From the NCBI GenBank assembly GCA_964016885.1, contig OZ024761.1, positions 15,872,001 to 15,936,000 on the forward strand: a stretch of DNA of 64,000 bases. Direction: 5' to 3'. Under the pieces are notes generated by a model that saw nothing but the letters and a program-made list of their open reading frames with translations, was not told where the DNA came from and searched no databases. The stretch is from Eledone cirrhosa (lineage: Eukaryota). The stretch's first letter is position 1. Every line of letters starts with the position of its first letter. The position numbers were made by a program, and so were the translations under genes. Shown piece by piece: positions 2,892-56,414 of the stretch.

Positions 2892-3297
2892 CTGTAAAAG
2901 AAACCTTAAAATATAATATATTTGTATATAAATGTAAAGGCACACTTATATATATATAACTACATATACATATATATAAATACATATAAATATATATACA
3001 CATAAACACACATATACATACAATGAACATAAGTCAAATGCTCGGACTTTTAAACGCTGAGAATATATATATATATCAAGGATGCTGTGCTTAAATGCAT
3101 AGATGCTATAAAATAGCTTATAAAATAAGAGTGAAAACCCTTAAAAAACAGAAAATGTTGGAATTGGAGATATGGAATTCACCATGGAGGCCGATGGCAA
3201 TTTCTTTTTCCATTTTGTGAGTCTTCGCTCTATTTTATAGCATCTATACACTTGAGAACATCATCTTTTATACTTATATGTATATATATATATACAT

Positions 3298-4238
3298 ATA
3301 TTGTTATACTTGGGAAGGGTCATATTGTTGTAATAATATTGCCAGAAATAATAACAGAACACACTCACTGTTTGGTTGGTTTTCGCTTCTGTATCTTTCA
3401 TATCTCCATAGTTAATTTATTTTATATATCACTGATTGACCAACGGTTAGAAATACAGATATAAATATATTTATATTCCGACCTCACACACTTACACCTC
3501 TCCAAGACAATGTCACTGGACCGAGATCTTTGGCGGTACTCAGTAATAGAGTAGATCCGCCTTACCTAAATACAAAGTAAAACCTACTACAGTCAGTAGG
3601 CACCACTAACAAAATACCCCCCCCCCCCCCCACCGCCCCTTTCAATGTAAAGTTATGTTGGTGCCACAACATCCAGGCCGAAACAAATGAGATCGTGTAG
3701 GTGTCACAACACATGCTGTAATCTGGTCGTGTAGGCAACACGGTAAAAACCTCCCAGCCCCACACTGTAAATGTGGTTGGTGTTAGGAAGGGCATCCAGC
3801 TGTAGAAAACCCGCCAGACAGTCCTATGTGAGCAAGACAACCACTCTTGCCTCAAGTGGGAAAACTCCCGTCCAAACCCATGCAAGCGTGGAACATGGAT
3901 GTTAAACGATGATGATGATGATGATGATATATAGTCTATCAAAGTTTTTCGTTGCAAATCTGCAACATCATCAGTGGTACTATTATGTTCCTGCCTATTG
4001 TATTGTATGTCTATGCCATTTTTTAACAGATGGTCAATCAATGATAAACGTTGATTGCCAAATGAATTAACTATAACTATGGAGATATAAAAGATACAGA
4101 AGCAAAAACCAACCAAACAGTGAGTGTGTTCTGTTAGTATTTCTGGCAATATTATTACAACAATATGACCCTCCTCCCCAAGTGTAACAATATTTGTTTC
4201 GACACCCGATTTCATATCAAAAACCTTGCAAAACAAAT
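3298..4238. mobile_element. Inverted pair of PLE-related terminal fragments (3298-3415 minus; about 4065-4238 plus) around an RTE 3' end
   Basis: atgaccctcctcccaagtgtaacaatatttgtttcgacacccgatttcatatcaaaaaccttgc resembles the tail of the 43-45 kb PLE. Confidence 0.6.
3940..3978 (-). ncRNA. Hammerhead core fragment
   Basis: CTGATGA t gttgca-gatt-tgcaac GAAA; stem I partner not evident. Confidence 0.45.
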
Positions 4239-4298
4239 ATATATATATATTAATTAAAAGTTGTTAAGATGGAGTTACTTCACCATATTTGCTTTATT

Positions 4299-4349
4299 GC
4301 ATGACATATATTTCTGTGACATGGTTATGCATGTGACTTCATCAGATGC
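4299..4349 (-). ncRNA. Minimal type I hammerhead ribozyme
   Basis: gcat CTGATGA agtcacatg..catgtcaca GAAA tatatg TC atgc; stem II has a mismatch. Confidence 0.7.
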
Positions 4350-5285: not shown

Positions 5286-5400
5286 CTGTGTGTGGTGTAA
5301 GTAAGTATGTATGTATGTATGTATGTATGTATATGTATGTGTACATGTATATATAGATATGTATATGCGTGTGTGTATGTATGTGTGCGTGTGTGAGTGC

Positions 5401-5454
<54 letters not shown>

Positions 5455-5831
5455 TTATTATTATTATTATTATGTGTAATGGGCTTTCTCCACAAATGTC
5501 CCTCCGAAGTCTCCCCCCTATTGGGGAATTTTTCATTGTTATTTTTTTTATTACATCCTCTGTTTTTGTTTTTTACATGCACAAATGCCCATTTGTACTG
5601 TCCTGTACTGTCCTATACTGTCCTTAATGTCTACTTTATGTAAACCCTTGTGGTTAATAAAGAAAGTATTATTATTGTTTATATATATATATATATATAT
5701 ATGTTTTATGTCTTCTTTTCTTTTCTTATATAAATAATAAAAATATTTACACGCACAAAACCCACATCGTACCGTCCTGTGCCATCTGTAATGTTTTTTC
5801 TTGATGTCAGCCCTTGTGGCCAATAAAGAAA

Positions 5832-5835
<4 letters not shown>

Positions 5836-5869
<34 letters not shown>

Positions 5870-6295
5870 GTTCTTTGAGTCTCAGTCATTGATGTTAGTT
5901 AACTGGAAAGTTTGTTGAAATGAATATCAAGCCACTACCTGCAGCCTCAGATATTCAGGACGTATCGGAGGGTTCTTGCTGTTCCCAGCAAGCATGCCTT
6001 TTGAAGCATTCCAAAAAGCGTGGCGGGGCCAATTTTCTTTAACCATCCCTGGAAACTTTTTGAGATAGTACCTAGTGCGCCTATGACAATCGGGACCACT
6101 TTGACTTCATGGCAGTTCCAAATCCTTTTTACCCCCCACTTTAAGTCCTGGTATCGGTTAATTTTTTCCCTCTCCTTCTCTTGCACTCTCGTGTCGAATG
6201 GGCAGGCCACATCCACAATCAGGCACAATCTTTTTTCCTTGCCCAAAACCACCAGGTCAGGTCTATTGTGTTCCAGTTTCTTGTCCGTCTGTATT
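5836..6295 (-). mobile_element. R4/Dong-clade non-LTR retrotransposon 3' end (restriction-like endonuclease) in (TAA)n
   Basis: HNRPDLVV..IVDVACPFD..KEREKINRYQDL..VVPIVIGALG; TAA repeats at both junctions; a second 3' fragment at about 17135-17280. Confidence 0.85.
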
Positions 6296-6602
6296 ATTAT
6301 TATTATTATTGTTGTTGTTGTTGTTGTTGTTGTTATTGTTATTATTATTCTTTTTTTAACATGCAATGGCCATACTCGATAACGCGGGGGCAGCCACCAT
6401 GTATGTATGTGTTTGTGTGCATTGATGTTCACGTAAAGGGGCATCTGTCTGTGTATGTGTATATGTGTATTAGCGTTCACGTTGAGTGGTATGTATGTAT
6501 ATATGCATTAATATTCATGTTAAGTGGTGTGTGCATGTGTATGTTTCTGCTTCTGTATGTGTATAAACATTCATGTAAAGTGTTATGTCTGTCTGTCTTA
6601 GT

Positions 6603-23359: not shown

Positions 23360-23414
23360 CTGAAGTGGCTGTGGAATAAAGAAAGAATTACACACATTAA
23401 TACTCCCAATATCA

Positions 23415-24548
23415 AAACTGCCTGAAACTGCCCCTGGTTCTACAACACAAAACTTTCTAAAGGTGTTTATATCTATCTGAAAAATATGCTGCCCCAAACT
23501 GCCTGAAAGTGCCCCTGGTTCTACAACACAAAACTGTCTAAAGGTGTTTATATCTATCTGAAAAATATGCTGCCCCAAACTGCCTGAAAGTGCCCCTAGT
23601 TCTACAACACAAAACTGTCTAAAGGTGTTTATATCTATCTGAAAAATATGCTGCCCCAAACTGCCTGAAAGTGCCCCTAGTTCTACAACACAAAACTGTC
23701 TAAAGGTGTTTATATCTATCTGAAAAATATGCCGCCCCAAACTGCCTGAAAGTGCCCCTGGTTCAACAACAAAACTTTCTAAAGGTGTTTATATCTATCT
23801 GAAAAATATGCTGCCCCAAACTGCCTGAAAGTGCCCCTGGTTCTACAACAAAACTATCTAAAGGTGTTTATATCTATCTGAAAAATATGCTGCCCCAAAC
23901 TGCCTGAAAGTGCTCCTGGTTCTACAACAAAACTTTCTAAAGGTGTTTATATCTATCTGAAAAATATGCTGCCCCAAACTGCCTGAAAGTGCCCCTGGTT
24001 CTACAACACAAAACTGTCTAAAGGTGTTTATATCTATCTGAAAAATATGCTGACCCAAACTGCCTGAAAGTGCTCCTGGTTCTACAACACAAAACTGTCT
24101 AAAGGTGTTTATATCTATCTGAAAAATATGCTGCCCCAAACTGCCTGAAAGTGCTCCTGGTTCTACAACACAAAACTGTCTAAAGGTGTTTATATCTATC
24201 TGAAAAATATGCTGCCCCAAACTGCCTGAAAGTGCCCCTGGTTCTACAACAAAACTTTCTAAAGGTGTTTATATCTATCTGAAAAATATGCTGCCCCAAA
24301 CTGCCTGAAAGTGCCCCTGGTTCTACAACACAAAACTGTCTAAAGGTGTTTATATCTATCTAAAAAACATGCAGCCCAAACTGTCTGAAAGCGCTCCTGG
24401 TTCTACAACAAAACTGTCTAAAGGTGTTTATATCTATCTGAAAAATATGCCGCCCCAAACTTCCTGAAAGTGCCCCTGGTTCTACAATACAAACCATACA
24501 GCCCCAAACAGCCTGAAACTGCCCCTGGTTCTAACACACAAAACTATC
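23415..24548. repeat. Minisatellite, 79-81-bp unit, about 13 copies
   Basis: aaactgcctgaaagtgcccctggttctacaacacaaaactgtctaaaggtgtttatatctatctgaaaaatatgctgcccc. Confidence 0.95.
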
Positions 24549-24819: not shown

Positions 24820-27188
24820 ACCCCTAACCACTGAGACAAACACCCCATCCTAATTACTGAGACAAACACCCACCCCTAACCACTGAGACAAACACACACC
24901 CCTAACCATTGAGACAAACACCCAGCGTAACCATTGAGCCAAACACCCACCCCTAAACACTGAGACAAACACCCAGCTTAACCATTGAGCAAACACCCAC
25001 CCCTAAACACTGAGACAAACACCCAGCTTAACCATTGAGCCAAACACCCTCCCCTAAACACTGAGACAAACTTCCAGCTTAACCATTCAGCCAAACATCC
25101 ACCTCTAAACACTGAGACAAACACCCAGCTTAACCATTGAGCCAAACACCCTCCCCTAAACACTGAGACAAACACCCAGCTTAACCATTGAGCCAAACAC
25201 CCACCCCTAAACACTGAGACAAACACCAGCTTAACCATTGAGCCAAACACCCACCCCTAAACACTGAGACAAACTTCCAGCTTAACCATTGAGCCAAACA
25301 CCCACCCTTAAACACTAAGACAAACACCCAGCTTAACCATTGAGCCAAACACCCTCCCCTAAACACTGAGACAAACTTCCAGCTTAACCATTGAGCCAAA
25401 CACCCACCCCTAAACACTGAGACAAACACCCAGCTTAACCATTGAGCCAAACACCCACCCCTAAACACTGAGACAAACTTCCAGCTTAACCATTGAGCCA
25501 AACACCCACCCCTAAACACTGAGACAAACACCCAGCTTAACCATTGAGCCAAACACCCACCCCTAAACACTGAGACAAACACCCAGCTTAACCATTGAGC
25601 CAAACACCCACCCCTAAACACTGAGACAAACTTCCAGCTTAACCATTGAGCCAAACACCCACCCCTAACCATTGAGACAAACACCCAGCTTAACCATTGA
25701 GCCAAACACCCACCCCTAAACACTGAGACAAACACCCAGCTTAACCATTGAGCCAAACACCCACCCCTAAACACTGAGACAAACACCCAGCTTAACCATT
25801 GAGCCAAACACCCTCCCCTAAACACTGAGACAAACTTCCAGCTTAACCATTGAGCCAAACACCCACCCCTAAACACTGAGACAAACACCCAGCTTAACCA
25901 TTGAGCCAAACACCCACCACTAAACACTGAGACAAACTTCCAGCTTAACCATTGAGCCAAACACCCACCCCTAACCATTGAGACAAACACCCAGCTTAAC
26001 CATTGAGCCAAACACCCACCCCTAAACACTGAGACAAACACCCAGCTTAACCATTGAGCCAAACACCCACCCCTAAACACTGAGACAAACTTCCAGCTTA
26101 ACCATTGAGCCAAACACCCACCCCTAACCATTGAGACAAACACCCAGCTTAACCATTGAGCCAAACACCCACCCCTAAACACTGAGACAAACTTCCAGCT
26201 TAACCATTGAGCCAAACACCCACCCCTAAACACTGAGACAAACACCCAGCTTAACCATTGAGCCAAACACCCACCCCTAAACACTGAGACAAACACCCAG
26301 CTTAACCATTGAGCCAAACACCCACCCCTAAACACTGAGACAAACACCCAGCTTAACCATTGAGCCAAACACCCACCCCTAAACACTGAGACAAACTTCC
26401 AGCTTAACCATTGAGCCAAACACCCACCCCTAACCATTGAGACAAACACCCAGCTTAACCATTGAGCCAAACACCCACCCCTAAACACTGAGACAAACAC
26501 CCAGCTTAACCATTGAGCCAAACACCCACCCCTAAACACTGAGACAAACACCCAGCTTAACCATTGAGCCAAACACCCTCCCCTAAACACTGAGACAAAC
26601 TTCCAGCTTAACCATTGAGCCAAACACCCACCCCTAAACACTGAGACAAACACCCAGCTTAACCATTGAGCCAAACACCCACCACTAAACACTGAGACAA
26701 ACTTCCAGCTTAACCATTGAGCCAAACACCCACCCCTAACCATTGAGACAAACACCCAGCTTAACCATTGAGCCAAACACCCACCCCTAAACACTGAGAC
26801 AAACACCCAGCTTAACCATTGAGCCAAACACCCACCCCTAAACACTGAGACAAACTTCCAGCTTAACCATTGAGCCAAACACCCACCCCTAACCATTGAG
26901 ACAAACACCCAGCTTAACCATTGAGCCAAACACCCACCCCTAAACACTGAGACAAACTTCCAGCTTAACCATTGAGCCAAACACCCACCCCTAAACACTG
27001 AGACAAACACCCAGCTTAACCATTGAGCCAAACACCCACCCCTAAACACTGAGACAAACACCCAGCTTAACCATTGAGCCAAACACCCACCCCTAAACAC
27101 TGAGACAAACACCCAGCTTAACCATTGAGCCAAACACCCACCCCTAAACACTGAGACAAACACCCAGCTTAACCATTGACCAAACACC
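24820..27188. repeat. Minisatellite, 51-bp unit (25+26-bp dimer), about 45 copies, with a 765-bp higher-order period
   Basis: cccagcttaaccattgagccaaaca-cccacccctaaacactgagacaaaca. Confidence 0.95.
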
Positions 27189-27218
27189 TCTTTCACAAAT
27201 AGTACAACAGCTACAAAC

Positions 27219-29650: not shown

Positions 29651-29752
29651 CATCATCGATTAATGTCTGTCTTCCACAATGGCATGGGTTAGACGGGTTT
29701 GTTCCATTTAGAGGCAAGTTGAGTCGGGTGACCCTGTCTCTCTCATATAGCA

Positions 29753-29788
<36 letters not shown>

Positions 29789-29859
29789 AAAAAAAAAAAA
29801 AAAAAAAACGCCAAAACTACACCTGATGTACCCCTTCCATACACATGCACACATGTGTG

Positions 29860-31085
29860 TATCATGACTCGTGCACTGTTCATTTTACTGATGTTTGTGC
29901 ATTGCCCTATGTACTGTACATGCACTTTTTTGATGAGTTGTGGTGCACCTGGGCACTGTGCACAATATTTCGTTATTGTTATTATATCATGACTCATACA
30001 CTGTTTATTTTCCTGACATTTGTACATTATTCTATGTACTATACATGCACCTTTGATGAGTTGTAGTGCACCTGGGCACTGTGCACAATATTTCGTTATT
30101 GTTATTATATCATGACTCATACACTGTTTATTTTCCTGACATTTGTACATTATTCTATGTACTATACATGCACCTTTGATGAGTTGTAGTGCACCTGGGC
30201 ACTGTGCACAATATTTCGTTATTGTTATTATATCATGACTCATACACTGTTTATTTTCCTGACATTTGTACATTATTCTATGTACTATACATGCACCTTT
30301 GATGAGTTGTAGTGCACCTGGGCACTGTGCACAATATTTCGTTATTGTTATTATATCATGACTCATACACTGTTTATTTTCCTGACATTTGTACATTATT
30401 CTATGTACTATACATGCACCTTTGATGAGTTGTAGTGCACCTGGGCACTGTACACAATATTTCATTATTGTTATTATATCATGACTCATACACTGTTTAT
30501 TTTCCTGACATTTGTACATTATTCTATGTACTATACATGCACCTTTGATGAGTTGTAGTGCACCCGGGCACTGTGCACAATATTTCGTTATTGTTATTAT
30601 ATCATGACTCATACACTGTTTATTTTCCTGACATTTGTACATTATTCTATGTACTATACATGCACCTTTGATGAGTTGTAGTGCACCTGGGCACTGTGCA
30701 CAATATTTCGTTATTGTTATTATATCATGACTCATACACTGTTTATTTTCCTGACATTTGTACATTATTCTATGTACTATACATGCACCTTTGATGAGTT
30801 GTAGTGCACCTGAGCACTGTACACAATATTTCATTATTGTTATTATATCATGACTCATACACTGTTTATTTTCCTGACATTTGTACATTATTCTATGTAC
30901 TATACATGCACCTTTGATGAGTTGTAGTGCACCTGGGCACTGTACACAATATTTCATTATTGTTATTATATCATGACTCATACACTGTTTATTTTCCTGA
31001 CATTTGTACATTATTCTATGTACTATACATGCACCTTTGATGAGTTGTAGTGCACCTGAGCACTGTACACAATAATTTCATTATT
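29860..31085. repeat. Minisatellite, 123-bp unit, about 10 copies
   Basis: 41-aa periodicity in spurious ORF 29743-31011. Confidence 0.95.
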
Positions 31086-36420: not shown

Positions 36421-36507
36421 GTACATACATACAAACATACATATAATTTGGAAAAGAATATATATATAAACACATATACTTTAGAAAATAAGCATGATAC
36501 AACTTAC

Positions 36508-36664
36508 CAAATGAAATCTCTACACAGCGAACAAAACGTTGGTTGTCTGAAAAATGTTGTCATGAATTTGTGACCATTAACTTGGTGTACTCTTCGTCTC
36601 ATAGCACCTCGTCGTCTATTGAGCAGTCCCTCTTTCTCCTTAAACACTCGCTCCTTCGGAGCTT
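36508..36664 (-). CDS. PRKCE: Novel PKC (epsilon/eta, Apl II-like) exon: pseudosubstrate and start of C1A
   Basis: Translates (E)[51 protein letters not shown](W); ttttcag acceptor, gtaagt donor; 157 nt, phase 1 to 2. Confidence 0.95.
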
Positions 36665-36853
36665 CTGAAAAGTTTTTAAAAAAAAGGGAGACAATTATTA
36701 TCAAATTAACTCCTTTGAGACCAACCCAGCTAAAACTGGCTTCGGTTCTATGAAACAAAACATTTCAAAGTGGGAATAAATTTGTAAACATTTATATACC
36801 CTTGTCATGGGTGATTTTGCTGATGATGATATATATATACATACACATACATA

Positions 36854-38399: not shown

Positions 38400-39635
38400 C
38401 TTTACATCTTTCACAGTGAATAAAAAAAATGAAAACCAGAAAGGCCATTTGGCAGTTTGAGAAAAAGCTTGAGGGGGGAGTTACCTCAGATTTGACTCCC
38501 CTCCAACAACAGGTACTTTTGTGTTTTCTCTAACATCATGTCAAACTAAGGGATACAATTTCAGTTGCCATAAAATACACTAGCCACAAGATCCAGGACA
38601 TGTGGAGAAAAGTAAATATCACTGCCAAAATGGGGGGAAAAAAAAAGCATCCGGACTTCAACCAAGAAACTGTATAAGGAGTATCAAGGACTGAAAAAAT
38701 AAAAATAAAGGATGACTGACGAGCAATTGCAAAGTGTGAAATTTGGAAAGGTGATCTTGAGGAAATTTTTGACATTGCAAGTCAGGATGTTCTCGAATGA
38801 AAGGATGTCCCATTTGAAGATAAAGCTTTACTTGAGACCGCAAAAAGATTGGATGTCTTCATTCATAGATGGTGTTGATGCAGAACATGTGAGAGCCATT
38901 CAGAAGAAAGAAAAGAAGATTCACAATATGAAAATAAGAAAGAGAAAGCCGGATGAAGAAATTAAGAAGATGTCTGAGAAAGTAACTCTTGAAGGCTTGT
39001 CATCCAGCTCAGCTACTCGTGATGATGAAAGCTTTAAGTCAGCACCGTCCCAAAAATCACTGCGAATAAAGCTGGCTCTCGACACCACTCTTGTTGCCAT
39101 GGTGGGAATGGGAAAAACTATTGGTATACTATCACAATTGTGGAGAGTTTTTGGCCATAATGTGTCTGAACTTTCACTGTGAAATGATGGCTTGAGAAAC
39201 CAAATTATATGCTTTCCCACCTGAAAACAGATCCTGTCTGGTCCTCCACTGAGATGGAGAATCATCACAATTGGCTTCCTGATCTAGTACTCAAAGACTT
39301 AATTACAGGAAAAGGAAAGGAGGAGCTGTTATGTGTTTCTATTGCAAGAGATGGAACTGGACAAACTGCTCAAGTCGTTTTGAAGGAAATTCAACAACTC
39401 AAAATTGGGGATAGAATAATTGGCATGTCTTTCGACACCACCACCAGTAACACCAGCATGCACCAAGGAGCCAATACAAACATTGAAGCAGCCCTGAAAA
39501 AATTCCTCTTGTGGCTGGCTTTCCGCCATCACATTCTTGAACTGGTTTTGAAGAAAGTCTTTGAGATCTTTTCCCCTATCATCTGGTCTCAGTATCACAA
39601 TGTTCAAAAAGTTCCAGGAATGTTGGGACTCCATC
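38400..39635 (+). pseudogene. Decayed DDE transposase with CxxH-type motif (hAT superfamily, probably hATm-like)
   Basis: SFDTTTSNT..GA..LLWLA(F)RHHILELVL; frameshifted ORFs 38712-39182 and 39209-39700. Confidence 0.6.
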
Positions 39636-40750
39636 AATCATCATCATCATCATCTTCACCATTTTACATCCATTTTTCCATGCTAGCATCGGTTAGATGA
39701 TAAGTCTCATTATCAAACTATCCTGGATGATGATGAGCCATGGAAGACTTTTACAAGTAAAAGAGGGAGATGATTGAATATCTACTGGCTGTATTGCTTT
39801 CAGGTCATCCCTGAGAAAACTAAGCAGAGTTCATAAAGCCCTCCCTTCTCTATCTTGGTGGTTGGCCACCTCTCTAGTTCTCCTACTTGATCCCAGGAAC
39901 TAACCCTCAGGTTCGTTGGATGGCTAAGACCATACATGTGATTGAGAACAACTTAAGTTTACACCATATAAGTCAAGAGATCGACAAAAAAGTCATTTCA
40001 TCATCATGATCATCGTTTTACGTCCGCTTTTCCCTGGTTAAAAATTTCATTCGTAAAAACTGTTTCTCTCTTTAACCAAAGTATTATTGTGTATTCAAAA
40101 CATATTCCTCCTGCTTATTTTCATTTCATTTTGTTTTGTTCTGTGCTTTCCACATTTCATTTAGTAAAGTGACTAGAAAGGACAATATAATACAAACCAG
40201 ATTCAAAATATCATTGTAAATAACAAAAATGTGAAAGTGTACAACCTCTGAATATGAGGGGGGCAGGGGAAAGGGTTGGAAAATCGGTAATTTTTCTAGG
40301 TTGTCTCCGTTGATTTTTTTTTATAGAAACCAGAATCAGTCGTTTAGTTTACATATTGAGACCTCCAAACCATCTTATTTATTTTATAATGTATGGGATT
40401 TCTAGTAATGTACTTTTTTGTTGTGTATAATGTTTTTAATGTCTAAAGAAAACTAATTGTCACATGAAAGCTACCACTTATTCCAGACTCCAAGTAAATA
40501 TATATATATATATATATATATACAGGAAGTCCTCAATCAATTCTAGCGGCTTCCCGCCTACATTAGTGATCCCCTCTGGCTTCTCAACATTCTCTACCAG
40601 ATATTTTGTTTTAGTCTCATTCAATCTCAGCCCCACATTCACTGAAGCTCACGGAGATGACGAAGGACCGTGACAAGTGGAGAGATGCTGTGCTGAACAG
40701 GACCCATCCCACCCTTGCAAGCAGGGAAAAGCGGACGCATAATGATGATA

Positions 40751-40904: not shown

Positions 40905-41565
40905 TAGAAATAAGAGGGATCAGATGTTGTTTACTCGAGAGAAGGCTGCGTTGGTATGGACACGTGATGCGCATGAAAGTCGATAGCTGTATAACAAAGT
41001 GCAGGGCAATAAAGATAGACGGTAGCCACGGAATAGGCAGACCTAGAAAACCCTGGGACGAGCTGATAAACTCCGACCTCACACACTTACACCTCTCCAA
41101 GACAATGTCACTGGACCGAGACCTTTGGCGGTACTCAGTAATAGAGAAGACCCGCCTTACCTAAATACATAGTAAAACCTACTACAGTCAGTAGGCATCT
41201 CTAACAAAATACACCCCCGTCCCACCACCCCCACCTCATCCACACCGCCCCCTTCTATGTAAAGTTATGTTGGTGCCACACCATCCAGGCCGAAACAAAT
41301 GGGATCGTGTAGGTGTCACGACAAAAAAACACACAGTCCACGCTGTAATGTGGCCGTGTAGGCAACACGGTAAAAACCTCCCAGACCCACACTGTAAACG
41401 TGGTTGGTGTTAGGAAGGGCTTCCAACTGTAGAAAACCTGCCAGACAGTCCTATGCGAGCAAGACAACCACTCTTGCCTCAAGTGGGAAAACCCCCGTCC
41501 AAACCCATGCAAGCGTGGAACATGGACGTTAAACGTTGATGATGATGATGATGATGATGATGATG
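40905..41565 (+). mobile_element. RTE LINE 3' end with (GAT)n tail; further 5'-truncated copies at 1-180, 3475-3927, 9915-10517, 32970-33263, 45265-45578, 45597-45860, 46232-46573, 52633-53037, 55442-56035
   Basis: ERRLRWYGHVMRM..GRPRKPW; near-identical UTR among copies in both orientations. Confidence 0.85.
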
Positions 41566-41797
41566 CATATGCATGCACACACACACCCAGAAAGAAAGTG
41601 AAAGTATTAAATGAGAAGGTGAGGGGGAATGGAACATTCTGACAGAAGGAATGCCTGTAATATTTATTACACATGAGATTAAATTATTTGGGTTTTTTTA
41701 AGTAGATGTGGAGAGTAACAATAGAAGGCAGCAGTTGTGGGGTACGTGTGGGTGTAAATATATATATGTATTCACACATACATATACATATATATGA

Positions 41798-43093: not shown

Positions 43094-43155
<62 letters not shown>

Positions 43156-43635
43156 ATACTTTGGGAGGGTCATGTTGCCAATAAGAAACACACGCACCAG
43201 TTGCTTTCACTTCAATTTAATTTATTAAATATTTATAAATTTACAAATTTATAAATTTCTGGTTGGTTGGCCGGTTCCACAACCAGATAGTTGTTTATAT
43301 ATATATAGTCACAGCTCCCCCGCCACACACTCTGCGACCCCCCCAGCGACCGGGGACCCCCCTCTTCGCCTCTGCGCCCCTCCTTCCCCCCATCCCACGC
43401 CACCCTGCTTGTGTGTGGGTTGCGCGCTCAGTTTGCGCATGCGCCACATCCGGGTGTCTGTGTGTGTTTGTGTTCATTTTTCTATTTTTCTATTTATATT
43501 TTTTTTATTTGTTTGTTTATTTATTTATTTATTGTTGGTTGGCCGCCTGCTCTATGTGTGTGCGTGCCCTCATTTTGTGTGTGTTTTCAATTGTAAGTTG
43601 TTTGCTCGATGTGTGTGTGTGCCCCCACCCTGTCC

Positions 43636-44162
43636 TTAACTGTAAGTTGCGATGCCGCTGCTCCACTCATATCCTCCACTCAATTTTGGTTTTAATTCCT
43701 TTATGCCCACTGCCTCTGTAATTTGCCCAAACACCGCGTCCCTCTTGTGTGTGGATTCCACTTTTACTCCCATGCTCTCTAATTTACCCCTGTGTTCTAT
43801 CCCAGCATGTCGGTAGAGCACAGATGACTCCCTATTATCCTGGAGGTCCCGCCAGTGTTCATCCACCCGCTCCCCTACACCACGAGCCGCCTCACCCATG
43901 TACACTACATTTTTGTTTCTACATTGTCCTTCAGTACATCTTATGCCATATACTACATTTCCAGTTTTACAGCCAACATGGGGGCTTATTTTACAGGTTA
44001 TACATCTCCTATCCATACATGAGGGTCCTCGGAACGGGTATGTCTTGCCAATAAGTGTCCCTACGGAGGTACCAGGTCTCTCTACTATCTTAATATTGGG
44101 GTTATGTTTCTTTAGGGCCCTTCTAAATTTGTAGGCTAGTTCGCCTCTAGGGGTTGTATTGA
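43636..44162 (-). pseudogene. Mirror copy of the PLE GIY-YIG fragment
   Basis: Translation identical to the plus-strand copy. Confidence 0.88.
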
Positions 44163-44689
44163 TCAATACAACCCCTAGAGGCGAACTAGCCTACAAATTT
44201 AGAAGGGCCCTAAAGAAACATAACCCCAATATTAAGATAGTAGAGAGACCTGGTACCTCCGTAGGGACACTTATTGGCAAGACATACCCGTTCCGAGGAC
44301 CCTCATGTATGGATAGGAGATGTATAACCTGTAAAATAAGCCCCCATGTTGGCTGTAAAACTGGAAATGTAGTATATGGCATAAGATGTACTGAAGGACA
44401 ATGTAGAAACAAAAATGTAGTGTACATGGGTGAGGCGGCTCGTGGTGTAGGGGAGCGGGTGGATGAACACTGGCGGGACCTCCAGGATAATAGGGAGTCA
44501 TCTGTGCTCTACCGACATGCTGGGATAGAACACAGGGGTAAATTAGAGAGCATGGGAGTAAAAGTGGAATCCACACACAAGAGGGACGCGGTGTTTGGGC
44601 AAATTACAGAGGCAGTGGGCATAAAGGAATTAAAACCAAAATTGAGTGGAGGATATGAGTGGAGCAGCGGCATCGCAACTTACAGTTAA
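44163..44689 (+). pseudogene. PLE linker plus GIY-YIG endonuclease fragment (apparently A-to-G hypermutated)
   Basis: CxxC...C, NVVYGIRC, VYMGE (YIGE), ERxxEH, YRHAxxEH, QITEAV, LxxxxEW motifs. Confidence 0.88.
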
Positions 44690-44973
44690 GGACAGGGTGG
44701 GGGCACACACACACATCGAGCAAACAACTTACAATTGAAAACACACACAAAATGAGGGCACGCACACACATAGAGCAGGCGGCCAACCAACAATAAATAA
44801 ATAAATAAACAAACAAATAAAAAAAATATAAATAGAAAAATAGAAAAATGAACACAAACACACACAGACACCCGGATGTGGCGCATGCGCAAACTGAGCG
44901 CGCAACCCACACACAAGCAGGGTGGCGTGGGATGGGGGGAAGGAGGGGCGCAGAGGCGAAGAGGGGGGTCCCC

Positions 44974-45018
44974 GGTCGCTGGGGGGGTCGCAGAGTGTGT
45001 GGCGGGGGAGCTGTGACT
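44974..45018 (+). ncRNA. Minimal type I hammerhead, apparently destroyed by A-to-G changes (mirror copy at 43307-43351)
   Basis: ggtcg CTGGGGG g gtcgca..tgtggc GGGG gagc TG tgact reverts by G-to-A only to agtca CTGAAGA a gtcaca..tgtgac GAAA gagc TA tgact. Confidence 0.65.
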
Positions 45019-45545
45019 ATATATATATAAACAACTATCTGGTTGTGGAACCGGCCAACCAACCAGAAATTTATAAATTTGTAAATTTATAAATATTTAA
45101 TAAATTAAATTGAAGTGAAAGCAACTGGTGCGTGTGTTTCTTATTGGCAACATGACCCTCCCAAAGTATAACAATATCGGTTTCAACACACGATTTCAGA
45201 TAAAGAATCTTGCTAAACAAATTCAGAAACGAAATATATATATATATATATTGTATATATATATCAATGTAAAGTTATGTTGGTGCCACAACATCCAGGC
45301 CGAAACAAATGAGGTCGTGTAGGTGTCACGACAAAAAAAAACACACAGTCCACGCTGTAATGTGGTCGTGTAGGTAACACGGTAAAAACCTCCCAGTCCC
45401 ACACTGTAAATGTGGTTGGTGTTAGGAAGGGCATCCAGCTGTAGAAAACCCGCCAGACAGTCCTATGCGAGCAAGACAACCACTCTTGCCCAAGTGGGAA
45501 AACTCCCGTCCAAACCCATGCAAGCGTGGAATATGGACGTTAAAC

Positions 45546-46622: not shown

Positions 46623-49294
46623 TTATTGCAGTAGAGTCCAGTAGAAGCTAGTTCTAACTAACTTATACATATATTTGCTGATCTATATAAGAGATTAAAT
46701 AAGATTTGATATAACCCAAACTATGTTCTTCGTTCTGCATGACTTACCATAATATATGTCAGTAAGTTTAAATGCTTTCCTTCTTTTCATTTCTCACGAA
46801 CTACAATATACACCAGCTTCACCCCAACTTGTTACCTTGCTCTGTTGATTAATCTTACCTCACCTGGCATAAAGGGCCATAACTAAACTCTAGTGATTAA
46901 ACCAACTCCTACCCTAGATGTTGTTGTTGTCGATGATAATGGTGATTATGTATGTATGTATGTAGGTAGGTAGGTAGGTAGGTATGTATGTAAATATGTA
47001 TGTATGAACACATTGTAAAGTGGTTGTGTAGGTGTCACGCCAAAAAGCACCCAGCCCTCACTGTAAAGTGGTCATGTAGGTGTCACGCCAAAAAGCACCC
47101 AGTAGACATTGTAAATGTGATTGCCGTTAGGAAGGGCATCCAGCTGTAGAAACCAACCCAGAGTCAGTTCTGTATGATCAAGACACGGTCACCTAATCTG
47201 ATTTGTCTCAAAATGGAACAACCCGTCTAACCCACATTAGCGTGGGAAAATAGATTTTAAACTCTAATGATGATGATGATATCGATACACAAGTTCTAAT
47301 GTTGTAACAACTTTTTTATATGAGAGAGAGAAAGAAGTATCGATCCTAGTACTGGAACCTAGTACTTTTTTCTTTATCAACCTCGAGATGATGAAAGGCA
47401 AAGTTGACCTCAGCAGGATTTGAATTCAGAGTACACATAGTCAGATCGAATACTGCAAAGCATACTATCCAACATTCCAATGACTGTGCCAATTTGCCAC
47501 CTGATGATGATGATATTGGATTCAAAGTCAGTAATTTCGGAAGGAAGAATATGTCGATAAAATTAACCCCAATACTTCATTGGTACTTTATTTTTCTTTT
47601 AACTTTAGCATTTAAACTGGCCATATTCGGCCAGGACTCTCTCACCTCTTTCTGTTCAAACTGGCTGTAACCATACTGACATTAAAGTATTGTTCTCAAA
47701 ATTAATAATATCAAAATCTCATAGATTCGATATTATGTGAGATAATTATGTGAGGTAAAGTGTTTACCGTGAAAATACAATAGTAAATATAGAGTAATGT
47801 AAATGCTAAAGGGTTAAAGGCAAAGTTGACCTCGATGGGATTTGAACACAAAACATAAATTACCAGAAGAGATACTGTTAACAGGCACACCACATATAAC
47901 AATCAAACAAATGACTCATTTCTATTGGAAGCCCTCTACAATGTGAGGTTTGTGAAGTTTGGTTGAGGTATGAGTAGTAAGTACCCTGATTTAGAGCAAA
48001 CTTAGTCTAGGACAAAAGCCAGCAAGCAAGAAAAGGTGTGGTGAAATAATTATAATGTATGCATACAACACAAAACACTTTAGTCTTTACGTTGGAGTAT
48101 CTCCAATGAAAACAATGAATTTGCAGGGATTTAGTAAACTAGGATTTTTTTCAACATGCTGACGCGTATGTGTGTTTTGTGCATATGCATACATTTATAT
48201 GTATGAGTATATAAATATAAACGTGCAAACACAGGCACACTTGCAAAAATACACACTCAGACATACATTCACACAAATGCACACATACACAGCATAACAA
48301 ATGGACTGCCAGCTGCTATTTTGCTATAGTTTTTTCACTCCACCCACATCCTTTTACACACACATATATTCATGCAGGCAGCAGATGTAAAGAGAGGGGA
48401 GTAGTATGAGGTAGTCAAACTACTCCTTTCTCTTTACATGTTGTGACAGAATCACAGAAATTTATATATAGATATAAACAAACGTTTTAATTAAGTTGAT
48501 TTTTGGAACATATATAAACACATTAACCTTTTTGAGAGACACTAAGAGATCAGGGAACAGATCCATTCAGATATCACAGTTCTGATACTAGAGAAATGTG
48601 GTTAGAATGTCTCAAGAAAAAATTGCTGGACAGATTTTTAGCTTGGAGATCAGAGAATCGCTCCAGGTAGAGCTGCTACTTCACCAAATTGAGAGCTCAC
48701 AGCTCTGATACTATAGACATGTGGTTAGAATGTCTCAGGAAAGAATTGTTGGACTCATTAAAATCATTTCTGGGTGTTAAGAGCTAAAGAGTTCCTGTAT
48801 AAATTAAAATATTCCAACATAATTTGATAAGAACCTTTTGACAAGTTATATTACAAATACCATCTTAACCCGTTAACATTTACATTAGTCTATATATACT
48901 ATTGTATTTTCATGGTAAACACTTTATCTCACATAATATTGAATCTATGAGATTTTGATATTTATTTTGAGAACAATACCTTAAAATCAGTATGAGCAGC
49001 CAGTTACAGCCAGTTTGAACCGAAAGAGGTGAGAGAATTCTGGCCAGATGCGGCCAGTTTAAATGCTAAAAGGTTAATGAAATAATTTTGGTAAATTCCT
49101 CAAAACTCCTAGTTAATTTATTCATTTATTAGAAATATATGAACAAAACTATTTCTATTCTGTGTCCCAGTCAAGGGGCTGAGGCCATGCTGGGGCACCG
49201 CAATGATGGCTGGAACAAGCACCACAAGGTATTAATGACCCTACAAATGTCACCCACCACCAGGTATTCTAACACCTTAAGAACTCTACCAATG

Positions 49295-50778
49295 TCACCA
49301 GGTGATGGTGGTGATAATCGTAGTAGTAGTATTGGTGGTAGTGGTATTGGAGGTGGTAGTATTGGTGGTAGTAGTAGTGGTGGTGGTGGAAATAGTGGTG
49401 GTAGTAGTGGTATTGGTGGAAGTAGTGGTGGTGGTGGTGGTGGCAGTAGTATTGGTCGCAGTAGTGGTGGTGGTAGTAGTAGTGGTATTGGTGGCAATAG
49501 TGGTAGTGGTGGTAGTAGTGGTGGTGGTAGCAGTAGTGGTATTGGTGGCAGTAGTGGTGGAAGTAGTGGTGGTGGAAGTAGTGGTAGTGGTGGTAGTAGT
49601 GGTATTGGTGGCAGTAGTGGTATTGGTGGAAGTAGTGGTGGTGGAAGTAGTGGTGGTGGTGGCAGTAGTGGTATTGGTGGCAGTAGTGGTGGTGGTGGTG
49701 GAAGTAGTGGTATTGGTGGCAGTAGTGGTGGTGGTGGTGGAAGTAGTGGTGGTGGTGGCAGTAGTGGTATTGGTGGCAGTAGTGGTGGTGGTGGAAGTAG
49801 TGGTGGTGGTGGTGGAAGTAGTGGTGGTGGTGGCAGTAGTGGTGGTGGTGGAAGTAGTGGTGGTGGTGGTGGAAGTAGTGGTGGTGGTGGCAGTAGTGGT
49901 ATTGGTGGCAGTAGTGGTGGTGGTGGAAGTAGTGGTGGTGGTGGAAGTAGTGGTGGTGGTAGTAGTGGTATTGGTGGCAGTAGTGGTATTGGTGGCAGTA
50001 GTGGTGGTGGTGGAAGTAGTGGTGGTGGTGGTGGAAGTAGTGGTGGTGGTGGCAGTAGTGGTATTGGTGGCAGTAGTGGTGGTGGTGGAAGTAGTGGTGG
50101 TGGTGGAAGTAGTGGTGGTGGTAGTAGTGGTATTGGTGGCAGTAGTGGTATTGGTGGCAGTAGTGGTGGTGGAAGTAGTGGTGGTGGTGGCAGTAGTGGT
50201 ATTGGTGGCAGTAGTGGTGGTGGTGGTGGAAGTAGTGGTGGTGGTGGCAGTAGTGGTGGTGGAAGTAGTGGTGGTGGTGGCAGTAGTGGTGGTGGTGGTG
50301 GAAGTAGTGGTATTGGTGGCAGTAGTGGTGGTGGTGGTGGAAGTAGTGGTGGTGGTGGAAGTAGTGGTGGTGGTGGCAGTAGTGGTATTGGTGGCAGTAG
50401 TGGTATTGGTGGCAGTAGTGGTGGTGGTGGTGGAAGTAGTGGTGGTGGTGGAAGTAGTGGTGGTGGTGGCAGTAGTGGTATTGGTGGAAGTAGTGGTGGT
50501 GGTGGTGGAAGTAGTGGTGGTGGTGGCAGTAGTGGTATTGGTGGCAGTAGTGGTGGTGGTGGAAGTAGTGGTGGTGGTGGTGGAAGTAGTGGTGGTGGTG
50601 GCAGTAGTGGTATTGGTGGCAGTAGTGGTGGTGGTGGAAGTAGTGGTGGTGGTGGAAGTAGTGGTGGTGGAAGTAGTGGTGGTGGTGGCAGTAGTGGTAT
50701 TGGTGGCAGTAGTGGTGGTGGTGGAAGTAGTGGTGGTGGTGGCAGTAGTGGTATTGGTGGCAGTAGTGGTGGTGGTGC
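49295..50778. repeat. Compound (GGT/AGT)n trinucleotide array; similar arrays at 31680-32600 and 60800-62110
   Basis: Direct inspection. Confidence 0.9.
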
Positions 50779-51307
50779 CAGCAACTGTAGAGATAACTAA
50801 GTCAGTCACAGTGTGTTCTTTAAATACCAACAGTTGGTTAAGTTGTTCTTGGAACAGATAAGTTAGATTGTGTGTCATGGAAGAGAGAGAGAGAGAGGGA
50901 GAGAGAGAGGGGGGAAGCAGTGGGAAAGAGGGGTGGAGAGAGAGTGGGGAAGAGAGAGGGAGTGGGAATGGGAGAGAGAATGGGAAGAAGTGGGAGAGGG
51001 TGTGAGGAAAAGAGGAAGAGAGGAAGAGGGAGAGGGAAGGAAAGAGTGGGAAAGTGAGTGAGAGACAGAGAGAAGAAGAGGAAAAGGAGAGAGAAATGGA
51101 TGAGAGTGAAGAGGAAGAAAGAGTGCGAGGAAGGGAGAGGGAGAGGAAAAGGAGAGAGAAAAATAGATGAGAGTGAGGAAGAAGAGAGGGGTGAGGAAGA
51201 GGAAAAGAGACAGCTTCACAGTTATAGTTAGAGTGGGAGGTGGAGAGAGACAGGAGATAGAGAAAGAGGGGGGGGGAGTGGCAGAGTAAGAGAAACAGAT
51301 TGACAGT

Positions 51308-54813: not shown

Positions 54814-56414
54814 AATAAACCTTTTAAGGAATTACACCAGTCCAGCCTCCTGTTATTTTATAATTACATATATATATATCCTCACCACCATCATCATCAT
54901 TTAACGTCCATTTTTCCATGCTAGCATGGACGAGCTGTCCTGTTGTGAGATAGACCAGGTTGGGTGACCATGTCTTGCTCATACAGAACTGATTTTGGCT
55001 TGGTTACTACAGCTGGATGCCCTTCCTAAAGCCAACCCCATTTGCAGTGATTACTGGGTGCTTTTTGACATGACATCTACATGACTACTATACAGTGTGG
55101 GCTGGATGCTTTTGTATACAGTGTACACCCAGTATCCACGTTACTGGCATTTGCAGTCCTGGTTATTCGCGGAATTTTCCTTAGAACCTAACTAATAATT
55201 ATTCATGGAAACCACCACTTATTCGTGCGATTGTAAATATCTTCCGCGATTTTTTAATGGCTTTAATATATTTTCATGCTTTTTAACACTAAATTATTAA
55301 TAACAATATACCATATTTGCCGGCCTATATTTTATGTTATGTTTTGACATTTATAGGCATTTTTATGGCCCATGTCCAATATTCGCAGTTTTTCACTCTT
55401 TGCGGGTGCTCTAGGAATGTAAATACTGGAGGACAACTGTATCATCATCATCATCATCATCATCATCATCGTTTAACGTCCATGTTCCACGCTTGCATGG
55501 GTTTGGACAGGAGTTTTCCCACTTGAGGCAAGAGTGGTTGTCTTGCTCGCATAGGACTGTCTGGCGGGTTTTCTACAGCTGGATGCCCTTCCTAACACCA
55601 ACCACATTTATAGTGTGGGACTGGGAGGTTTTTACCGTGTTGCCTACACGGCCACATTACAGCGTGGACTGTGTGTTTTTTTGTCGTGACACCTACACGA
55701 TCTCATTTGTTTCGGCCTGGATGTTGTGGCACCAACATAACTTTACATTGAAAGGGGCGGTGTGGATGGGGTGGGGGTGGTGGGACGGGGGCGTATTTTG
55801 TTAGAGATGCCTACTGACTGTGGTAGGTTTTACTTTGTATTTAGGTAAGGCGGGTCTTCTCTATTACTGAGTGCCGCCAAAGATCTCGGTCCAATGACAT
55901 TGTCTTGGAGAGGTGTAAGTGTGTGAGGTCGGAGTTTATCAAGTCGTCCCAGGTTTATCTGGGTCTGCCTACTCCGTGGCTACCGTCTATCTTTATTGCC
56001 CTGCACTTTTTTATACAGCTGTCGTCTTTCATGCGCACATACATATATATCGATCTAAACCCTTATTATTTTATATATATATATCGCCCTCTCTCCTTGT
56101 CTAATCTGCACCAAACTGTATATCAGATGTCCCCTAGGAATCAAACCAGTTCAAATCTCTCTCTCTCTCTCTTCTCACCCTGTCTCTCTCTCTCTCTCTC
56201 TCTTCTCACCCTGTCTCTCTCTCTCTTTCTCCTCATATTTCTCTTTCTTCCCCTCTCTCTGTCCTATCTGCACCAAACTGAACATTAGACATCTCTAGGA
56301 ACCAAACCAGTCCAAACACTGCAGAATGTTGTCTTTAGGAAACATGCCAACCTTTCCTCCTCCTTCTCCTCATCTTTCAACTATTTTCATATAAATCTTA
56401 ACTCTCTCTACCTG

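Follow-up and report, generated by a model that had tools for sequence, protein, structure and literature searches.

A palindromic, A-to-G-edited Penelope-like insertion in a PKC intron of the octopus Eledone cirrhosa: a probable ADAR footprint and a proposed origin of its second arm

The insertion, its element and its host gene

The window, the whole 64,000-nt stretch of the Eledone cirrhosa assembly analysed here (contig OZ024761.1, positions 15,872,001 to 15,936,000), holds part of a calcium-independent PKC gene on its minus strand, the kinase exon of which is 98-100% identical to Octopus proteins. PKC exons were located by tblastn of protein P0005 against the window and the next 40 kb: the exon listed in Table 1 closes a host intron of 35 kb, and the exon upstream of it (aa 131-143) is found about 8 kb past the window end. 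Since these minus-strand exons (aa 131-143 and 144-196), both with GT/AG sites, flank the palindrome described here, it lies inside the PKC intron, as the initial annotation had supposed. The PKC introns also carry long minisatellite arrays (23380-24270, 25181-27200, 29743-31000 and 49250-50800), two of which adjoin exons, and the intron with the palindrome contains an inverted pair of another repeat (40968-41567 and 55438-56037; 600 nt, 95% identity) that could pair around it; a comparison of the two copies of this pair revealed no editing bias between them. Elsewhere in the window, a minus-strand frame at 5947-6507 (RPDLVV...IVDVACP) resembles the terminal restriction-like endonuclease of a non-LTR element, and two neighbouring plus-strand frames at 38709-39700 give the impression, from their translation, of a broken transposase fragment.

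Table 1. Features of the palindromic insertion and the nearest PKC exon (window positions)
Feature	Position	Strand	Remarks
PKC exon, aa 144-196 of Octopus calcium-independent PKC	36507..36665	-	tblastn, GT/AG sites
Left (TA)n target repeat	43115..43147	.	read in sequence
Left arm, tail-less	43148..44162	-	element positions 3292-4306 of reference copy
GIY-YIG endonuclease remnant, left arm	43636..44162	-	
Palindrome centre TTGATCAA	44159..44166	.	
Right arm, same sequence as left arm	44163..45177	+	
ORF C-terminal 174 aa: CX4CX2C linker and GIY-YIG endonuclease	44163..44689	+	
Private T-to-C, both arms	44226 (mirror 44099)	+	exact matching
Span of 107 A-to-G changes	44245..45054 (mirror 43271-44080)	+	
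Hammerhead-like motif of pLTR, minimal	44971..45021	+	by inspection
ORF start (MTLPKYNNIG...), continuing into tail	45152..45233	+	
Tail, 56 nt, unedited (0/24 A)	45178..45233	+	right arm only
Right (TA)n target repeat	45234..45251	.	

The two arms of the palindrome are complementary at 1015 of 1015 positions with 0 nt between them, and the centre reads TTGA/TCAA, where the family sequence is self-complementary at the central AT only. One 184-aa frame is common to both arms, only one arm carries the tail, and (TA)n repeats adjoin both ends of the palindrome, all of which agrees with the first description of the locus. The tail had also been thought to run into the start of an ORF, and in a tandem sister copy this ORF indeed continues in frame. 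The outer end of the tail-less arm coincides with the upstream of two AUAU/CG start sites and that of the tail with the downstream one; a target-site duplication is unreadable within the (TA)n repeats of this locus. We are dealing with a young copy of a Penelope-like element that was truncated at its 5' end and inserted into a (TA)n repeat.

The palindrome represents the 3'-terminal part of a young Penelope-like element (PLE). The Penelope-like identity, proposed from the window alone, is supported by a sister copy whose ORF combines RT with a C-terminal GIY-YIG, and by the pLTR, the tail and the tandem and inverted layouts of the family. In a genome search with 44 matches, 40 of 1625 candidates were scored; within this sample, the other copies are 87-90% identical to the window, whereas sister copies are mostly at least 99% identical among themselves. 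The frame of the tandem sister copy spans 1271 aa, with a YVDD motif and VVY...YIG near its end. Homologues of the element ORF are named RT-domain proteins, some of which carry PF00078 or PF01541; Pfam returned GIY_YIG_2 at E=0.045 for the edited endonuclease remnant and no match over the first 1259 aa of the element ORF. As in EN+ Penelope-like elements, RT is followed by a C-terminal GIY-YIG and the ORF start lies in the pLTR; tandem and inverted arrangements and an optional tail also occur in the family. Published work describes for EN+ PLEs a 5'-truncated inverted copy beside a direct copy with the tail at one end only (PMC3846280, PMC8557442), and these insertions resemble the one in the window in the position of the ORF start, the (TA)n targets and the palindromic junctions. 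The linker CIDKKCITC, two further Cys and two His in the translation and the (TA)n flanks appear to match the Neptune/Nematis type, which is defined by a CX2-5CxxC linker before GIY-YIG, a CCHH motif and a (TA)n target (PMC8557442). A full-length ORF at L031:6900-7400 contains an Asn/Thr-rich low-complexity insert before the RT, as described in rotifer Penelopes. By inspection, the pLTR of an unedited copy contains a putative hammerhead motif with CUGAAGA, stem II, GAAA and a closing stem (the minimal hammerhead ribozyme is defined in PMC4209133), while Rfam gave no ribozyme match for this motif. In the window copy both core boxes, CUGAAGA and GAAA, are turned into G runs.

A second arm created during assembly from fold-back reads would explain why the arms are 100% identical and why none of the read-derived contigs examined crosses the palindrome centre or the whole locus. 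However, a 353-nt contig from run X1 with 0 differences to the edited arm has a depth of 13.1, compared to 5.82 for the flank (2.25x), a second edited bin reaches 2.0-2.8x the unique flank in runs X1-X3, and both the one-sided tail and the outer end at element position 4306 fit the architecture of the family. Half coverage on each arm had been named as a sign of an artefact; the depth is instead about twice that of the flank, which speaks against one. X1-X3 are three runs of one sample, possibly the source of the assembly, so that depth counts as support rather than proof; we consider an artefact very improbable.

Clustered A-to-G changes

Relative to the majority sequence of 27 other loci, the arm reads G at 107 of 470 adenosines, with 0 changes from G to A, one private T-to-C and one family-polymorphic site (p about 3e-63 for the A-to-G excess under a generous null). 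The putative edits reported initially are therefore real, and they alter many residues in the C-terminal ORF part of the right arm. The first 82 nt and the last 123 nt of the arm are edit-free, as is the tail. Just two of the 107 G's recur among the 27 other loci, once each, and the private T-to-C has no further exact match in the assembly, a pattern that edited carriers would escape. The insertion had been called recent on the grounds that its new CpGs have not decayed. Recency stands but this clock is weak: with 14 new CpGs the argument is partly circular, as a decayed site could pass as unedited, and the identity of the arms together with a single private change is the better sign of youth.

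The neighbour preferences emerge when four edited copies are pooled over the ORF (370 edits). Adenosines with a 5' G are edited at 25 of 190 positions, compared to 124 of 268 with a 5' U (G depletion p=1e-12), and a 3' G is favoured (108/228 edited, p=3e-6); in the window alone, 12 of 60 adenosines with a 5' G are edited and the depletion is not significant (p=0.16). The four copies share sites above chance but only in part, which argues for separate editing events. Across ten arms, all edits fall at or before position 4233, but editing extends past this point in L137 and in a third copy within L123.

The most heavily edited stretch (121 nt), used as a query, retrieved further hyper-edited copies. 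A query from the densely edited ORF yielded unedited copies only, a degenerate 35-mer gave 1579 matches with 0 hyper-edited ones among the first 100 listed, a pattern with G forced at one site found the window's two arms alone, and another forced-letter pattern found one unedited copy. Edited copies appear to be rare in the genome. ADAR-type edits can reach DNA by reverse transcription, as is known from A-to-G hypermutated avian retroviral DNA; those are exogenous viruses in somatic cells, whereas here an endogenous element in an animal genome is concerned.

The clustered one-way A-to-G changes at the window and the 5' G depletion in the pooled copies are most probably an ADAR footprint in genomic DNA, an assignment in which we have high confidence. 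A burst of A-to-G changes by RT misincorporation, dNTP imbalance or another deaminase could be considered, as the edits are known here from genomic DNA alone and their 3' preference differs somewhat from that of octopus hyper-edited reads, in which the 3' G preference is reported as weak (PMC5625713). Such a source is most improbable in view of the strong 5' G depletion in the pooled copies and of a pair of palindromes on C2 and C19, discussed below, at which 41 of 41 substitutions are A-to-G on one strand and confined to the stems. ADAR hyper-editing of repeat dsRNA is highest in octopus and frog, and lizard Penelope RNA is edited as well (PMC5625713); clustered A-to-G changes, 5' G depletion and palindromic repeats as prime substrates are common to that survey and our data, but its accessible sections concern edits seen in RNA only, whereas ours stand in a genome assembly. 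APOBEC-edited LTR retrotransposons likewise show a strand-biased deaminase burst with a neighbour motif (PMC4866542, PMC2873906). There, however, G-to-A changes arise on the cDNA of LTR elements and, in the portions available, in vertebrates only, with 19 invertebrate genomes serving as negative control, whereas here A-to-G changes arise on the RNA of an invertebrate PLE. Searches of listings and abstract openings in a largely open-access literature turned up neither ADAR-type edits that had become fixed in genomic copies of a retrotransposon nor twin priming by PLEs.

Edits shared by both arms and a proposed two-ended priming

The A-to-G sites common to both arms, counted in their overlap at six edited loci with two arms, amount to 107/107 (window), 33/33, 111/120, 37/37, 29/31 and 55/59; in the older copies, a few of these sites possibly reflect subfamily variation. 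Shared edits would be expected neither from two independent RNAs nor from a single passage through a hairpin RNA; both arms of these loci therefore derive from one edited RNA, and the changes, A-to-G on the sense strand, point to a sense template. The earlier claim that editing preceded the second arm and that the arms descend from one molecule is thereby borne out at the window and at five further loci. As our searches used an A-to-G-rich query, the edited loci are a biased sample with respect to polarity; the converse search, with a T-to-C-rich query, found one more T-to-C arm among 29 other loci, and its partner arm is A-to-G edited.

We removed C3:328.6M (20/23 shared) from the edited set because of possible subfamily variation, and C4:373.9M, C2:165.6M and C1:412.0M because their edited overlap is too small. 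A parent copy of the window palindrome was not found: two unedited palindromes with nearly the same centre, C3:203.8M and C1:295.7M, each carry variants absent from the window. In a tandem insertion at C1:2.08-2.09M (L103 and L167), 33 edits are common to the inverted arm and the partial unit upstream; the unit downstream comes from a different sub-lineage and is unedited.

Palindromes that are perfect and lack a spacer can extrude and serve as templates for their own repair. Arms from different or differently edited templates could thus have been homogenised later, by arm-to-arm conversion or hairpin repair, which would also account for the private T-to-C on both arms. This course of events is improbable, since edits are also shared by both arms where the arms are unequal and loops long, and since homogenisation is not the rule: other palindromes have kept arm-specific changes, and two loci have kept opposite edits.

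We propose, with moderate confidence, that one sense RNA hyper-edited by ADAR served twice as template for reverse transcription, likely once per cut target end. First, at least 810 nt of the element RNA would have been in double-stranded form, and 23% of the arm adenosines would have been edited by ADAR. The endonuclease would then have cut both target strands, and each 3' end would have annealed to AUAU and primed RT on this one RNA, one starting from the tail end and the other from the pLTR end, with the trailing RT enzyme displacing the leading cDNA. Both cDNAs would finally have stopped at the same place and joined via the self-complementary AT. This two-ended priming would require RT to displace a 1 kb RNA:DNA hybrid. 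The product would be a dead copy, as judged from its sequence, without RT, with a recoded endonuclease and with the ribozyme core lost.

The window arms are nested and equal and cannot by themselves separate twin priming from fold-back, so that other loci carry the argument. At C4:202.8M, 92 A-to-G changes in 782 nt occur on the tail-less arm only, the overlap shares 55 of 59 edits and the tail belongs to the tailed arm only; these non-nested edits and the tail imply that both arms were RNA-templated. In 40 of 42 two-arm loci by hand tally, the exceptions being L140 and L149, one outer end lies at each of the two AUAU/CG sites, which are 56 nt apart. Among 34 loci where just one arm bears the tail, the arm without it is longer at 15, the tailed arm at 10 and both are equal (within 10 nt) at 9, in a hand tally that mixes new events with re-copied palindromes; it omits two tandem-extended and two read-through loci, L160, C4:169.2M, L140 (both arms tail-less), L149 (both tailed), L163 (duplicate) and the incomplete L009 and L026. 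At L121, L144 and L155 one side is little more than tail, as in L1 twin priming, and target-site duplications of about 10-12 bp are readable at three loci outside repeats.

The initial annotation had favoured a hairpin-primed copy of the first cDNA. In such a fold-back, or in a hybrid of both processes, one edited RNA would give one cDNA whose 3' end turned back, the second arm being plus-strand DNA. This would explain all 107 of 107 common edits and the private T-to-C without a missing source allele, the latter as a first-strand error that was copied (a missing source allele explains it equally well); a weak natural hairpin (-1.8 kcal/mol) at the palindrome centre and the near-equal arms at 9 of the 34 loci also suit it, and self-priming has been proposed for PLE palindromes, albeit on an antisense template (PMC3846280). 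Yet pure fold-back from a tail-primed cDNA forbids a longer tail-less arm, which is seen at 15 of 34 loci, two of them clearly edited. It further leaves unexplained why the second arm stops at 4306, which is also the 3' end of solo tail-less copies, and why the stop avoids a longer TATATA run in the pLTR, and the observed centre lacks the letters of a natural loop. The claim thus remains tenable at the window, given the shared T-to-C and the weak hairpin, and sits poorly with the often non-nested arms and the two fixed start sites of the family. The non-nested loci would also be accounted for by a hybrid in which both ends are primed and the longer cDNA is the template for the inner part of the shorter arm, and sites that differ between the arms of older edited loci were of no help in telling twin priming and fold-back apart. 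Taken together, we consider fold-back or a hybrid rather unlikely, and priming at both target ends remains our preferred reading.

Several copies have their 5' ends at element positions 3291-3295 (window 44163, L010, L029, L039 and L040, from at least two sub-lineages), possibly due to an RT stop or an RNA break at the weak hairpin. L039 has repeated short duplications at its centre.

The proposed priming at both ends resembles known systems in part. In vitro, the Poseidon protein of Anolis, a predicted dimer with AT-rich targets, nicks and extends both target strands, and two RNA start sites bound its tail (PMC11167929). Two RT start sites bounding the tail and AT-rich targets are common to Poseidon and our proposal; the accessible part of that paper deals with neither inverted arms nor editing and reports no homology for Poseidon, whereas the start sites here match the target by AUAU, and the octopus tail measures 56 nt. 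In L1 twin or dual priming, as proposed here, both ends prime and the inner ends are joined to a head-to-head product, but the segments of L1 twin priming are non-overlapping (PMC2837659), whereas the arms here overlap by up to 1 kb. Shared edits distinguish one RNA (twin) from two (dual), which the data in the consulted part of PMC2837659 could not. The edit barcode of the window suggests that the template was sense, in contrast to PMC3846280, which favoured antisense self-priming while leaving the question open.

Edited hairpins as probable templates for new insertions

The initial annotation suggested that palindromic insertions in transcribed introns might supply the next round of edited templates. 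At the window, the palindrome would likely fold as a 1-kb hairpin in PKC pre-mRNA and serve as an ADAR substrate. On the PKC strand, however, the tail reads in antisense and (UA)n terminates the sense arm, whereas the tailed arm is the sense arm in both read-through copies that we found, which weakens the case for the window locus as a future template.

The suggestion holds up better elsewhere. At C19:14.49M (L171), the tail-less arm shows T-to-C changes at 18 of 53 sites in its paired part and at 0 of 45 in its unpaired part, and the tailed arm A-to-G changes at 23 of 64. A pattern across the C19 junction has one other match, the unedited palindrome C2:106.39M (L170). The two differ by 41 substitutions, all of them A-to-G on one strand, one of which is probably a change in the parent: the stems are changed at 19 of 55 and 22 of 63 adenosines, the loop at 0 of 51 and the tail at 0 of 23. 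The edits are hence confined to the regions that form dsRNA (41/118, compared to 0/74 in loop and tail). The left flanking microsatellite of C2 and C19 contains a common 73-nt pattern (best of 50 control flanks, 20 nt), and their unique flanks do not align. From the stem-only A-to-G changes, the common microsatellite and the non-aligning unique flanks we infer that a transcript started outside the palindromic insertion on C2 was likely edited in its hairpin form and then copied to C19. The feedback route foreseen in the initial annotation is thus supported by this parent-daughter pair.

The second read-through copy, at C4:162.1M, has 16/120 A-to-G changes on its tailed arm and 28/62 T-to-C with 0 A-to-G on its tail-less arm; no parent was found for it. 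This oppositely edited palindrome (L123:3378-4122 and 5341-6209) lies 1.2 kb from a separate, heavily A-to-G-edited copy. At C2:324.75M, tail-to-tail copies about 10 kb apart (L107:1794-2614 and L108:4391-7000) have equal substitution counts in their shared 3' part and possibly represent a larger inverted duplication.

The origin of PLE inverted repeats and the RNA strand that is copied are stated open questions (PMC3846280, PMC8557442). Random edits tag single RNA molecules, so that shared versus opposite edits reveal the strand, the number of templates and the order of events, and the prediction derived from these barcodes is testable in the published in vitro system (PMC11167929). RNA edits have here become part of the genome, in the group of animals where editing is most extensive, as an ADAR counterpart of APOBEC-edited endogenous retroviruses, and the C2/C19 pair provides a traceable parent-daughter example of their entry into the genome. 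Given the rarity of edited copies, the effect on the activity of the family may be small. PLEs could routinely prime both target ends on one RNA and thereby create head-to-head palindromes; host transcription across them would yield hairpins that are edited by ADAR and return to the germline, which would make ADAR a heritable mutagen of a retrotransposon in octopus; on this generalisation we are evenly divided. If it is true, ADAR feeds on the insertion products of the element and destroys its ribozyme and endonuclease, and the edits are single-molecule barcodes of the insertion mechanism.
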